DNA of 64,000 nucleotides from an uncultured Actinomycetes bacterium (GTDB lineage: Bacteria > Actinomycetota > Actinomycetes > Streptosporangiales > Streptosporangiaceae). Position 1 is the stretch's first letter. Each line of letters begins with the position of its first letter. A program made the translations under genes and the position numbers. Below the pieces are notes generated by a model that did no database searches, was not told the origin of the DNA, and worked only from the letters and a program-made list of their open reading frames with translations. The stretch covers positions 37,565 to 101,564 of the forward strand of contig CAWHFP010000014.1 in assembly GCA_963828445.1 (NCBI GenBank), written 5' to 3'. Below are positions 12,808-19,705 of this stretch, piece after piece.

Positions 12808-14115
12808 TCAGCTCGACCGGCCGCGCCGGGACAGCGCGTCCACGCTGACCGCGGCCAGCAGGACCAGCGAGGTGACGATGTAGGTCGCCGCCGCGCTCGT
12901 TCCGAGCAGGGCCAGGCCGTTGGCGATCGCCGCCACGACCAGGCCACCGATCAGGGCGTTCAGCATCTTGCCGTGCCCGCCGAACAGGTGGGTACCGCCG
13001 ATGACCGCCGCCGCCACCGCGAACAGCACCAGCTGGCCGCCGTTGGTGTCGGTGGAGATCGACCCCAGCCGGGAGGCCAGGATGATGCCCGCGATCGCCC
13101 CGGTCAGGCCGGTCAGCACGAAGGCCAGCGTCCTGATCCGGTTCAGGCTCACGCCGGCCCGCCGGGCCGCCTCGGCGTTGCCGCCGACGGCGTAGATGTA
13201 CCGGCCGAACCGGGTCCGCCCCAGCAGGAACGTCCAGATGGCCAGCACTCCGAGGATGATGGGGACCACCCACGGCACCCCGCGCAGGGCCTGCAGGGCG
13301 GTGCCCCGGTCGGCGTTGCCGATCAGCACGACCACCACGCCGGCCACGGCCATGACCCCGATCTTCAGCGCGGTCACGCTGAGGGGCGGGGTGACCAGGC
13401 CGGCCGCCCGGCGCTGCCGGTCGCTCAGCAGCAGCATGGCCGCGGCCGCCGCCACGATCACGACCATCAAGATCCAGCCGGCCACCGGGCTGAGGTTGCC
13501 CTCGGTCAGGTCGCCGATGATCTTGTTGCTGATCGGGATGGAACCGCCGGGCCCGTGGCCGCTGCGGGCGACCAGAACGATCATCAGGCCTTCCAGCCCC
13601 AGCAGGCCGGCCAGGGTCACCACGAACGATGGCAACCCCAGCCTGGTTATCAGCAGGCCGAAGATCAGGCCGATGAAGGCCCCGGTGGCCAGCCCGAGGA
13701 TGATGGCCACCCACCACGGCAGGCTGAACACCGTCCAGGCCGTGATGACCGCGGCCACGGCGCCGGTGTACCCGACGGCCAGGTCGATCTCGCCCAGCAG
13801 CAGGACGAACACCTCGGCCATGCCCAGGATGATGTAGGGCGCGCCCTGGATCAGCAGGTTGACCAGGTTGCCCGGCGACAGGAACAGCGAGTTCCTGACC
13901 TGGAAGTAGATCACGATCGCGACCAGGCCGATGACGACCGGGAGCGCGCCACTCTCGCCGCTGCGGATGCGGCGGAACTGAATCCGCGCGTACTCGCCCA
14001 GCGAGTTGGCCATCACCTCGGGCGCGGCCGTGGCGACCTGGGCGGCCTCGCCGTTCTCAGCCGACTCGGGTGTATCGGGCGTCTCGGGCGACGGCTGGTG
14101 AGTTTCGGTGCTCAT
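12808..14115 (-). CDS. Sugar ABC transporter permease (CUT2, XylH/RbsC type)
   Basis: The ATG at 14115 overlaps the ATPase stop (ATGA). MSTETHQPS...LPVVIGLVAIVIYFQVRNSLFLSPGNLVNLLIQGAPYIILGMAEVFVLLLGEIDLAVGY... It has many TM spans. Confidence 0.9.
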   Translation of the reverse strand: MSTETHQPSPETPDTPESAENGEAAQVATAAPEVMANSLGEYARIQFRRIRSGESGALPVVIGLVAIVIYFQVRNSLFLSPGNLVNLLIQGAPYIILGMAEVFVLLLGEIDLAVGYTGAVAAVITAWTVFSLPWWVAIILGLATGAFIGLIFGLLITRLGLPSFVVTLAGLLGLEGLMIVLVARSGHGPGGSIPISNKIIGDLTEGNLSPVAGWILMVVIVAAAAAMLLLSDRQRRAAGLVTPPLSVTALKIGVMAVAGVVVVLIGNADRGTALQALRGVPWVVPIILGVLAIWTFLLGRTRFGRYIYAVGGNAEAARRAGVSLNRIRTLAFVLTGLTGAIAGIILASRLGSISTDTNGGQLVLFAVAAAVIGGTHLFGGHGKMLNALIGGLVVAAIANGLALLGTSAAATYIVTSLVLLAAVSVDALSRRGRSS

Positions 14116-17175: not shown

Positions 17176-19705
17176 CGTCTTCCTCTCCGGCGGGAGTTCC
17201 CCCGGGCACCAGGACCAGCGCCCCGGAGGCGGCCTCGCCCGCGTCCCCGGGCACGTCGGCCGGCAGGCACACCCGGAACCGGGTCCCCCGGGGCAGCCGC
17301 TCCAGCTCGATCCGGCCCTGGTGGGCCTCGGCGATGCCCTGGGCGATGGACAGGCCGAGCCCGGCCCCGCCGGTGCGGGTCCGGCGGCGGCGGCCCGCCT
17401 CGAACGGCGCGGCCGCCACCTCGTCGGGAATGCCCGTCCCGTTGTCGGTCACGCTGATCACGACCTCGGCGTCGGCCACTTCGGCGGTGACCCGGACCTG
17501 GGTCCCGGGCGGGTTGTGGCCGACCGCGTTGTTGATGAGGTTGACGAAGACCTGTTCCAGCCGGTCGTGGTCGGCCCAGATGACCGGCAGGTTCGGGTCG
17601 CACTGGACCGAGACCGCGGTCGCGGCGGCCGGCGGCAGGCAGGCCACCGCGGCCTGGACCACCAGCGGCAGGTCGCACCAGTCGGGGGCCAGGCGCATCA
17701 GGCCCGATTCGATGGTGGAGAAGTCGAGCAGGTCGTCCACCAGCCGGCCGAGCCGGGCCGACTCGGCCGCGATGCGGTCCAGGAACCGGTCCTGTGAGCT
17801 GCGGTCCCAGGTCACGTCGGTCTGCATGAGGCTGGAGGCGTAGCCCCGGATCGCGGTCAGCGGCGTACGCAGCTCGTGGCTGAGCCGGGACAGGAAGTCC
17901 CGCTGCAGCTCGCCGGACCGGCGCAGGGCGGTGGCTTCCTGGTGGGCCAGCCCGGCCTCCTCCCGGTCCAGGGCCAGCCGCAGGGAGTGCGCGGCGTCCT
18001 CCATCAGCGCGATCTCCTCCTGGGCGGCCTTGGCGCTGGGCTGATTCCAGCTGGCCACCAGCACGGCCGGGCCGTTGGCGGCGGTGAACGGGACCAGCCG
18101 GACCCGGCGTCCCTGGCCGCTGGTGAGCTGGCGGGGTGTCCCGTCCGGGTAGGCCTGGGCCAGCGTGTGATCCGCGGCCTCGCGCAGCGCGGGCGAGGCA
18201 TCGGCCGGGTCCCAGATCGTGTCGGTGCCCTGCGGCCCGGCGTAGGCCCGCCACCGCGGCTCCTGCCCGTCCGGCCGGGTGAGCAGCGCGACCTCGTCGG
18301 CCTGCAGGCCGTGCCGCAGCGCCTGGGCCGCGATGACCAGGCCCTCGGTCACCTGCGCCGGGCCGGCCAGGTTCTCCAGCATCTCCCGGATCGTCTCCAG
18401 CACCCGGTTGCGCGCGGTGGCCTGCTCCAGCAGCCGGTCCCGCTCGATGGCGCTGGCCGCGTAGCCGGCGTACAGCGTGACCAGTTGCAGCTCGTGCCGG
18501 TGCGGCATGCCCGCCTCGGGCCGGAACACGGTGATGATGCCGCTCAGGCCGCCCGGGCCGGCCACCGGGACCGACCACGAACTGCCGACCTCGGCCAGGT
18601 CGGTCATGCCCCGGAACCGCGACCAGGCCGCACTGGAGTGGACATCGGCCTCGATGACCGGCCGCTGGGTGGCGGCGGCCAGGCCGACCGGGCCGCCGCC
18701 CGGGCCGAACGGCAGCTGCGCCCACGGGCTCAGCTCGCCGGGCGCGAACCCGAGCGTGGCCGCGCAGACCAGCGACTGATCCGGGCCGGGGCCGGACCCC
18801 GGATCGGAGACCAGGTGAATGCAGAGCCGCTCGGCGTTCAGCGCCGCGCCGAGCGCGGACATGATCAGCGACAGGCTGGACGAGGCGTCGGCCGACACCA
18901 GCCGGTCGGCCAGGCCGTGCAGCCGGGTGAGCTGACGGCGGGCGGTGGAGTCCACCGGCTGGCCGGAGATCAGCGCCACCACGTCGTCCGGGTGGGTGCT
19001 GACCGGGTCCAGGTCGGCGACGACCCGGCCCTGGCGCAGCACCACGATGCGGTCGGCCAGCCGGAACATCTGATCGATGTCGTGGCAGGCCAGCAGGATC
19101 GTGGTGCCCTTCTCGCGCAGCCCGGCGATGAGCTCCTCGACCTGAGCCGACTCCATCACCCCGAGCGAGGCGGTGGGCTCGTCCAGGGCCAGCAGCCGGG
19201 GCTTGCTGCCCATGGCCCGGGCCACGGCCACCAGCTGGCGCTGCCCGCCGGACAGCGAACTGACCCGGCGGGTGGTGTCGCGCAACGGGATGCCCAGGCT
19301 GTCGAGCAGGGCGGCCGCCGTCCGGTGGAAGCGGCTGTCGGAGAACATCATCCAGCGCGACTCGCGGCCGAGCAGCACGTTGGCCGCGATGTCCAGGTTC
19401 TCGCACAGGGCCAGGTCCTGCCAGACCACGGCCACGCCCTGCCGGGCCGCGGCGGCCGGGTCCGGGCCGACCCGGCGGCCGGAGATGTAGATCTCGCCCT
19501 GACTGGGGGCGATGTCCCCGGCGATACAGCGCACCAGGGTGGTCTTGCCGGCGCCGTTCTCGCCGGCCAGCGCGATCAGCTCGCCCGGGCGGACGGTCAG
19601 GCTCACGCCGTCCAGGGCCTGGACCGCACCGAACCGGGCGGACAGACCGGACACCGACAGCAGCGGCGTCACCGCGGGCTGGGCCAACTCGGAGGCTGCG
19701 ACCAT
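17168..19705 (-). CDS. Soluble sensor histidine kinase with an N-terminal ABC-type ATPase domain (NBD-GAF-GAF-HisKA-HATPase_c)
   Basis: Residues 1 to about 255 form a full NBD ([30 protein letters not shown], LACHD). Two GAF-like regions follow, then the H-box [19 protein letters not shown], N-box NLINNAVGH, and G-boxes DNGTGIP and [10 protein letters not shown]. There are no TM segments. The stop overlaps the RR start by 8 nt (ATGCCTGA). Confidence 0.9.
   Translation of the reverse strand: [845 protein letters not shown]

Follow-up and report, generated by a model that had tools for sequence, protein, structure and literature searches.

A histidine kinase with an N-terminal ABC nucleotide-binding domain forms part of a conserved five-gene module with a single-NBD CUT2-type sugar importer

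We describe a five-gene module in a 64-kb stretch of DNA from an uncultured Actinomycetes bacterium of the Streptosporangiaceae (contig CAWHFP010000014.1; hereafter the window, which has a high GC content of about 70%). Its first gene encodes a soluble sensor histidine kinase that carries at its N-terminus the nucleotide-binding domain (NBD) of an ATP-binding cassette (ABC) transporter. This gene is followed, on the minus strand, by genes for a response regulator and for the binding protein, single-NBD ATPase and permease of a CUT2-type sugar importer. It is very likely that these genes form a self-contained, conserved module in which the kinase and regulator are tied by regulation to the importer. 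The best explanation overall adds to the conserved module and the regulated importer an NBD that docks on the transporter and serves as the input of the kinase, and this fuller account we hold with slightly less than even confidence. The features of the module, in window coordinates, are as follows.

17168..19705, minus strand: soluble sensor histidine kinase of 845 amino acids (aa), with an ABC NBD, linker helix, GAF, GAF, DHp (HisKA) and HATPase_c (Pfam and AlphaFold2).
18965..19669, minus strand: ABC nucleotide-binding domain of the kinase, aa 13-247, with LSGGQRQ signature, Walker B LLALDE, D-loop SLGV and H-loop CHD.
18026..18886, minus strand: tandem GAF region of the kinase, aa 274-560, the interval between NBD and kinase core (Pfam GAF_2 and AlphaFold2).
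17258..17905, minus strand: kinase core, HisKA and HATPase_c, with H-box SHELRTPL and His610.
16471..17175, minus strand: OmpR/PhoB-family response regulator, Response_reg and Trans_reg_C.
16273-16470: intergenic gap of 198 bp between the regulator and binding-protein genes.
16376..16440, minus strand: predicted conserved promoter/operator (nhmmer profile and alignment).
15040..16272, minus strand: lipoprotein sugar-binding protein, Peripla_BP_4, XylF/ChvE-like but under the family cut-offs.
14112..15005, minus strand: single-NBD CUT2-type importer ATPase, 297 aa, one ABC_tran domain.
12808..14115, minus strand: polytopic permease, BPD_transp_2, GguB-like (under the family cut-offs), with about 10-12 transmembrane (TM) helices.
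GRYIYAVGGNAEAARRAGV: predicted coupling-helix loop of the permease.

An earlier, sequence-only reading of this DNA had given the minus-strand order of the genes, their coordinates and the 198-bp gap, all of which are borne out by domain searches and inspection of start codons; the four peptide strings that it quoted are likewise present in the translations. The regulator gene overlaps the kinase stop by 8 nt and is thereby translationally coupled to the kinase gene, and the permease ATG at 14115 overlaps the ATPase stop as ATGA, making these two genes coupled as well. The binding-protein open reading frame (ORF) as called spans 15040-16341. Its true start is likely the TTG at 16272, which has GAGGTGA just before it and, after it, a lipoprotein signal that ends with the lipobox LAAC, and with this start the gap measures exactly 198 bp.

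The case for a functional unit rests on gene order. The order kinase, regulator, binding protein, single-NBD ATPase and permease(s) recurs at 21 of 21 reference-genome loci with enough downstream DNA, as well as on four of four contigs of divergent kinase representatives (P0165, P0145, P0150 and P0219; 52-56% NBD identity), a fifth such contig stopping after the regulator gene. The module persists down to 51-53% NBD identity (about 25 loci), and the genes that flank it vary from locus to locus. A module that stays constant amid differing flanks points to a functional link between the kinase-regulator pair and the importer. The sequence-only reading had raised the question of whether the NBD-kinase always sits beside a single-NBD CUT2 operon, and in this survey it does. 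The window's own neighbours (a PAS-GAF kinase, a REC-PP2C protein, a PMT_2 glycosyltransferase, an E1 dehydrogenase and IlvD) were set aside as not belonging to the module, since they have no counterparts at the other loci.

Relatives of the kinase number in the thousands in metagenomes and are abundant in soil and peat, with database annotation that is generic only. The best 120 clusters (90% identity), out of more than 120 such clusters, are all at least 68% identical to the window kinase; ABC_tran, GAF and HisKA occur in every one of them, and HATPase_c in all but the truncated P0034. Clustering at 50% brings in several further representatives of 790-920 aa with 52-56% NBD identity. A scan of one genome per species gave at least about 24 loci with full-length relatives, the remaining matches listed being ordinary tandem ATPases. 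All full-length loci among the matches listed come from metagenome-assembled genomes (MAGs) from soil and peat, assigned to Streptosporangiaceae or to uncultured Actinomycetes/Actinomycetota, and single bins among them to Solirubrobacterales, Mycobacteriales, Conexibacteraceae, Nocardiopsaceae and Bryobacterales.

The kinase itself is of class I, with a HisKA domain that has the conserved histidine and a HATPase_c domain. Pfam places ABC_tran at residues 31-179 (PF00005, E = 7e-33), GAF_2 at 279-421, HisKA at 601-668 (PF00512, E = 1.4e-19) and HATPase_c at 712-816 (PF02518, E = 5e-25), and H610 in SHELRTPL is invariant among members of the kinase family. No TM-like segment was detected in the kinase, its 19-residue hydropathy peak of 1.67 lying within the catalytic domain. 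An AlphaFold2 monomer model built from 83 homologues (mean pLDDT 72, pTM 0.37), which was used for domain boundaries only, delimits the NBD (16-247), a helix (253-271), a GAF domain (274-400), a 45-residue helix (403-447), a second GAF-like domain (452-560) and a 65-residue helix (562-627) that leads into the DHp and catalytic domain. The predicted second GAF-like domain, of alpha/beta fold, has this model as its only source. The pLDDT falls below 50 at the linker (254-275) and at the start of the helical subdomain (103-113) and, together with the pTM of 0.37, this led us to drop inter-domain geometry from consideration. In Foldseek searches, the best whole-chain matches are full-length bacteriophytochrome kinases, and the N-terminus matches ABC ATPases.

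The NBD has all motifs of the ABC ATPase superfamily in canonical order. Among 83 aligned family members, the Walker A, Q-loop, Walker B (DE) and H-loop motifs are invariant or nearly invariant, and the signature motif is invariant except for Q155, which is nearly so; the linker between NBD and GAF (HPDDVVAL..G....D..) is almost invariant across the same members. Walker A, Walker B and the Q-loop motif are retained even in the most divergent members. Thus conserved, the kinase NBD still looks catalytically competent.

The gap between the regulator and binding-protein genes provides the second line of evidence for regulation of the importer. The regulator (73-88% identical across related loci) has the receiver and winged-helix Trans_reg_C domains of the OmpR/PhoB family, and direct repeats with 11-bp spacing lie upstream of its putative target operon. 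At 16376-16440 the minus strand reads GTTCAC-n5-TTTTAT-n13-GTTAAG-n5-GTTAAT-n11-TATGGT, in which the direct repeats recur about every 11 bp, with 11 nt separating the end of the proximal pair from a -10-like TAnnnT. An nhmmer profile made from 12 loci, window included, was searched against about 0.5 Mb. It found one site per locus with E <=0.0011 at 19 loci including the window, always between the regulator and binding-protein genes and in constant orientation; seven of these 19 loci had no part in building the profile (E 5e-11 to 1e-3). Another two matches are weak (L021, E = 0.27, on the other strand; L015, E = 0.77), and the 64-kb window holds the site once only. The 18 invariant columns of the operator alignment are the T/A positions of four, sometimes five, repeats and the TA...T of the -10-like hexamer.

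In the pho box bound by PhoB, direct repeats stand one helical turn apart and the proximal pair lies about 10 bp before the -10 element, replacing the -35. The array before the binding-protein gene is pho-box-like, its proximal pair lying in the -35 region, and transcription of the importer operon is most likely activated by the regulator through this predicted direct-repeat operator. The idea in the sequence-only reading that the regulator acts on the transporter promoter is thus very probably right, as judged from the conserved repeats and -10-like hexamer in the gap at 19 loci. No second operator that might indicate autoregulation of the kinase was found in the window, and upstream of any kinase gene there was only the weak L021 match (E = 0.27). 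Searches for riboswitches (Rfam) and tRNAs gave no match anywhere in the 64-kb window.

The importer that would be controlled in this way departs in one respect from classical CUT2 systems (RbsABC/XylFGH): its binding-protein and permease domains fit, but its ATPase has a single NBD of 297 aa in place of the tandem of about 500 aa, as the sequence-only reading had rightly pointed out. The ATPase belongs to a known single-NBD variant of CUT2. By tblastn against annotated plasmid/replicon records, genes that are 50-62% identical occur in Nonomuraea, Embleya, Kitasatospora and Streptomyces, and also in Rhizobium, Ochrobactrum, Shinella and Caballeronia. The cassette order binding protein, single-NBD ATPase and permease of about 420 aa was seen in all eight replicon cassettes inspected and at a Thermogemmatispora locus (L066) from the genome scan, whose ATPase falls within the same 50-62% range. 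Within 6 kb, neither an NBD-kinase nor a matching regulator was present in the eight replicon cassettes or at L066, and an AraC-family regulator stands upstream in the three annotated cassette records. A characterised single-NBD CUT2 pentose transporter of Sulfolobus acidocaldarius is described as probably a homodimer (PMC7264815). With kinase-free cassettes and this probable homodimer at hand, the earlier premise that a lone NBD is an anomaly in need of a partner looks weak.

Comparison of the window permease with the Protein Data Bank (PDB) by sequence returned no matching chain, and the NBD matches there were to other ABC families only; a mapping of the permease-contact groove onto a solved CUT2 structure was for this reason dropped. 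No call was made on substrate identity either, since the XylF/ChvE-like binding protein scores far under the equivalog cut-offs and a galactokinase gene stands upstream at one locus (L022) only.

The kinase NBD is itself assigned to the CUT2 family (TC 3.A.1.2), its nearest relatives being CUT2 ATPases, and it stands apart from the second NBD (NBD2) of the tandem enzymes. Its best NCBIfam matches are YtfR, AraG, XylG, GguA, MglA and RbsA, all far under the equivalog cut-offs, and both it and the transporter ATPase match only the N-terminal half of the RbsA/XylG/AraG/MglA/YtfR profiles of about 500 aa. Identity to the first NBDs of tandem ATPases (NBD1) is 26-44% for the kinase NBD and 28-46% for the transporter ATPase. 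By BLASTP, the two window proteins share 43% identity and 61% positives over 226 aa (E = 2e-54); the alignment over their whole length that the sequence-only reading had made by eye is therefore far beyond chance.

What finds no support is the claim that the two NBDs are close paralogues, derived by local duplication of the transporter motor into the kinase. The representative search is unsuited to ranking the nearest free NBDs, because two-domain tandem ATPases displace single-NBD proteins in it, and a domain-level alignment and tree were used in its place. We compared 32 kinase NBDs (the window, 22 genome loci and 9 cluster representatives) with 20 cognate ATPases from the same loci, 9 free single-NBD ATPases from kinase-free cassettes, and 30 tandem ATPases from the representative search, split into NBD1 and NBD2. 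Over 236 aligned columns, the mean identity of the kinase NBDs is 0.39 to cognate ATPases, 0.43 to free single-NBD ATPases and 0.36 to tandem NBD1, as against 0.56 between cognate and free single-NBD ATPases. In a neighbour-joining tree with 200 bootstraps, cognate and free ATPases group together in 200/200 replicates (100%), with the cognates nested within the free ones, and the kinase NBD and cognate ATPase are sisters in 0/200 (0%). The kinase NBDs are monophyletic in 70%, and their position as sister to the entire single-NBD clade is deep and weakly supported (58%). The 43% identity thus falls in the ordinary range among CUT2 NBDs, the window ATPase is nearer to free ATPases (50-62%) than to the kinase NBD, and the two window domains are not recent paralogues.

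Since the cognate ATPases are nested within the free ones and the kinase NBD lies outside, the split of the kinase NBD is old; by this tree it came before the single-NBD ATPases that now occur in Alphaproteobacteria, Betaproteobacteria, Chloroflexota and Actinomycetota diverged from one another. Taken together, these results strongly support a kinase NBD that is an old branch of the single-NBD lineage, rather than a recent copy of its neighbour, and that has since evolved with the kinase. Membership in that lineage is itself probable and draws on local conservation as well as on the tree. Against single-NBD ATPases and tandem NBD1, respectively, segment identity is 0.70 and 0.35 at the Q-loop and start of the helical subdomain (..N..LG.E), 0.74 and 0.42 at the signature, and about 0.6 and 0.3-0.5 at the D-loop. 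The derived motif QDLALC(D/E)NLD, at the Q-loop and helical-subdomain start, is common to the kinase NBD and the single-NBD ATPases and is the specific shared marker, the signature and D-loop saying little beyond a symmetric-dimer type. In ABC importers generally, this is the region that touches the coupling helix of the permease.

An observation on the alignment may be of wider use. The degenerate motifs of tandem CUT2 ATPases are the signature in the N-terminal NBD and Walker A, Q-loop and H-loop in the C-terminal NBD, whereas single-NBD ATPases and the kinase NBD are fully canonical, which gives a clean sequence marker of homodimer-type versus tandem-type CUT2 motors.

We infer that the NBD is the input domain of the kinase. 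Tentatively, and as something we consider quite possible but short of probable, we postulate that a pair of kinase NBDs docks on the permease dimer and that the kinase follows the substrate-driven NBD cycle. HisKA kinases are homodimers. Dimerisation through the DHp would enable the two NBDs to form an ordinary ATP-sandwich dimer, which would seat on the permease dimer, replacing or competing with the ATPase dimer. Sugar-loaded binding protein would then drive the closing-and-hydrolysis cycle of the NBDs, the cycle would reach the kinase core by way of the linker helix, which is invariant, and the helical spine of the two GAF domains, and the phosphorylated regulator would in turn raise importer expression. 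It is tempting to speculate, with a little more doubt, that a subpopulation of the importer is in this way turned into a transmembrane receptor, the kinase NBD pair replacing the ATPase pair and the ABC importer acting as a two-component sensory domain.

Hints in favour of docking are that the kinase has no membrane or periplasmic sensor, that the Q-loop motif is shared, that two variant loci (L022 and L011) can be read in this sense, and that the NBD shows a correlation with the permease. L022, from a Conexibacteraceae MAG, is the deepest variant: its kinase has 619 aa, one GAF only, the signature LSSAQ and the H-loop TRD, and its NBD is probably hydrolysis-defective, yet it retains the Q-loop motif, the linker and the full regulator and importer neighbourhood. 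The L022 kinase gene occupies 10001-11860 of its locus, with the galactokinase gene directly upstream at 8624-9676. At L011, the DNA past the operator (13268-19423) holds two binding-protein/permease pairs and one single-NBD ATPase of another subtype (43% identical to that of the window), and so a binding protein and permease of the cognate type are present without an ATPase gene of the cognate type. Another arrangement is found at L002, L016 and L020, which have two permease genes, one single-NBD ATPase gene and a binding protein at 45-49% identity; L007, where the DNA ends inside the first permease gene and the binding protein is divergent, was grouped with them by similarity. A second transporter subtype under an unchanged kinase and regulator implies cassette exchange beneath a constant sensor.

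Co-divergence was followed through pairwise identities at 18 related loci, with partial Mantel tests that are liberal and give a hint only. The kinase NBD retains a correlation with the permease given the rest of the kinase (r = 0.36, p = 0.016) and given the binding protein (r = 0.45, p = 0.0002). With the ATPase, no residual correlation of the kinase NBD was found at these 18 loci (r = 0.01, p = 0.47).

Several findings weigh against the docking proposal, and many of them fit a rival account in which the kinase is purely cytosolic. Under that account, the GAF domains recognise a metabolite inside the cell, such as the imported sugar or one of its derivatives; the NBD makes no contact with the transporter and serves the kinase as a dimerisation clamp that depends on ATP, or as an ATP/ADP gate responding to energy state; and the synteny arises only from control of the importer by the regulator. 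Two GAF domains on a phytochrome-like GAF-GAF-kinase spine are an ordinary alternative input, and the conserved operator already accounts for the synteny. The importer does not need a second NBD supplied by the kinase, since the same cassette occurs without an NBD-kinase, and thus autonomously, in many cultured bacteria. Co-divergence falls into two blocks, one of kinase NBD, rest of kinase and regulator (r = 0.73-0.91) and one of binding protein, ATPase and permease (r = 0.64-0.89); the kinase NBD goes with the rest of the kinase (r = 0.79) and the regulator (r = 0.73), and not with the ATPase. Between the one- and two-permease subtypes, mean identity is 0.48 for the binding protein (0.70 and 0.80 within subtypes), 0.46 for the permease (0.61 and 0.65) and 0.64 for the ATPase (0.71 and 0.90), compared with 0.69 for the kinase NBD (0.68 and 0.69 within). 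Unlike the ATPase, the kinase NBD therefore shows zero subtype-specific divergence, being as similar between subtypes A and B of the transporter as it is within them, a pattern that speaks against fine co-adaptation at an interface. The kinase and ATPase families each conserve the rest of the helical subdomain, which forms the opposite side of the coupling groove, but they conserve different sequences there, and the canonical signature and D-loop that they have in common may be ancestral states lost by tandem NBD1s. Finally, the signature is degenerate in 6 of 32 kinase NBDs compared with 0 of 29 transporter ATPases, which suggests that strict ATP-sandwich catalysis is relaxed in some branches. 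We regard a purely cytosolic kinase as the main rival, somewhat less likely than docking. Against it, the NBD and the neighbourhood are retained at L022 although one GAF domain is gone; the best-conserved shared segment, at the Q-loop and the start of the helical subdomain, would serve no obvious purpose in a free NBD apart from sensing the gamma-phosphate; there is the residual NBD-permease correlation; and, from established ABC biochemistry, an isolated NBD would have no evident signal-dependent trigger for closure.

The sequence-only reading favoured a different contact, in which the kinase NBD heterodimerises with the transporter NBD on the permease, mimicking the NBD1-NBD2 pair of tandem ATPases, such that kinase output reports each transport cycle. 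Mixed dimers are sterically plausible, as the dimer-interface motifs are nearly identical (Walker A, LSGGQRQ.VAVA and DEPTA(A/S)LGV), and the two-permease loci L002, L016 and L020 have only the one ATPase gene. Both NBDs are, however, NBD1-like and fully canonical, whereas tandem ATPases have complementary degenerate halves; the kinase, presumably a homodimer, already supplies a pair of NBDs; in other bacteria, ATPases of this clade work with no such kinase; and kinase NBD and ATPase do not co-diverge. Heterodimerisation is thus improbable in our view. More improbable by far is that a gene fusion left the NBD behind as an evolutionary relic that takes no part in signalling today. The degenerate signature in some family members (6/32) would suit a relic, but, within the main family, the NBD is among the best-conserved parts of the protein, with catalytic motifs and linker invariant or nearly so in 83 sequences; the fusion persists down to 51-53% NBD identity; and not even the most divergent members have lost Walker A, Walker B or the Q-loop motif.

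Elsewhere in the window, an ORF with PAS-GAF-HisKA-HATPase_c domains runs divergently from the NBD-kinase (19717-22290, plus strand); its domains end near 21500, after which the frame degenerates. An overlapping ORF in another frame (20906-23911, plus strand) encodes REC, PAS, SpoIIE/PP2C phosphatase and HATPase_c_2 domains from about 21650. The region 19717-23911 can be read in two ways, as a pair of genes whose ORFs were called too long or as a single large hybrid kinase-phosphatase that a frameshift has broken. As annotated, the 19717-22290 ORF and the NBD-kinase would start only 11 bp from each other. Immediately downstream of the permease, the N-terminal part of a PMT_2 glycosyltransferase (11298-12581, minus strand) and a YkcB_C C-terminal part (10204-11400, minus strand) lie in different frames, joined by a low-complexity stretch rich in Gly, Pro and Thr; 10204-12581 may contain a frameshift or assembly error in a YkcB-like mannosyltransferase. 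At 34001-38000 the GC content is 0.61-0.63, against about 0.70-0.75 elsewhere, and this segment may have been acquired.

Transporter-coupled two-component signalling is already known from Bce, Pst-PhoU-PhoR and DctA-DcuS. To our knowledge, flux sensing and trigger transporters are known from few systems, and in all of them transporter and kinase meet without a covalent bond, at a contact that is difficult to map. In the window kinase, the element presumed to make that contact is an ABC ATPase domain of the same polypeptide, which would make transporter-to-kinase coupling directly testable in a simple architecture of five genes and one operator. If docking is true, the module would be a compact, genetically tractable model of how the conformational cycle of an importer becomes a phosphorylation signal, and a ready-made sugar-responsive sensor module; and if the importer does serve as a receptor, this would be a signalling architecture not described so far. 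Were docking false, the family would still put an ABC NBD to a use not yet described, that of an ATP-dependent input domain in a histidine kinase. A full-text literature search for histidine kinases with a fused ABC/NBD domain returned nothing relevant, which speaks for the papers searched and is not proof of novelty.

Comparison with known systems brings out both the likenesses and the particular character of the module. The Bce kinase relies on its transporter and carries no sensor that would bind a ligand by itself. In the Bce-type systems of Firmicutes (BceRS-BceAB), a two-component system adjoins the ABC transporter under its control (PMC3023708), and this much is shared with the window. 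BceS, however, belongs to the intramembrane-sensing kinases and has two TM helices, and BceAB is an exporter-like transporter of the FtsX type, the permease BceB having a large extracellular loop, whereas the window module combines a kinase without a TM segment, a binding-protein-dependent CUT2 importer with a BPD_transp_2 permease, and a proposed contact through a covalently fused NBD; it is therefore not a flux-sensing system of the Bce type. In the Pst-PhoU-PhoR and MalK-MalT systems, the activity state of an importer NBD (PstB, MalK) is relayed to a transcription system; there the NBD belongs to the transporter as one of its subunits, and its contact with the regulator, via PhoU or the regulatory domain of MalK, is not covalent. 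The operator layout described here resembles the pho box of PhoB, but domain searches of the module detected no PhoU, PAS or MalK-type C-terminal domain, and the PhoR and PnpS profiles match the kinase core only, under their cut-offs, so that the module is not of the Pst-PhoU-PhoR kind.

Sugar availability is tied to a two-component kinase in ChvE-VirA of Agrobacterium too, and the binding protein and permease of the window are ChvE-like and GguB-like, respectively (under cut-offs); VirA, however, senses ChvE by a periplasmic domain, and the window kinase has neither a TM nor a periplasmic part. Single-NBD CUT2 importers, such as that of Sulfolobus acidocaldarius and the Rhizobium and Streptomyces cassettes, have the same binding protein, single-NBD ATPase and large permease, but are accompanied by regulators of conventional type, AraC-family ones in the annotated records, and lack an NBD-kinase. 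Bacteriophytochrome kinases share the GAF-GAF-DHp-CA fold and a parallel-dimer spine of long signalling helices (Foldseek), at a sequence identity of 17-18%; the window kinase lacks their PAS/bilin-binding module and has an ABC NBD at its N-terminus instead. CbrA and CrbS likewise have a transporter component joined to a kinase as an N-terminal input module (PMC7096432 and PMC5715377). In CbrA and CrbS the fused part is the SLC5 membrane permease of a secondary transporter, whereas the window kinase carries the soluble ATPase motor of a primary transporter, one of the ABC type.

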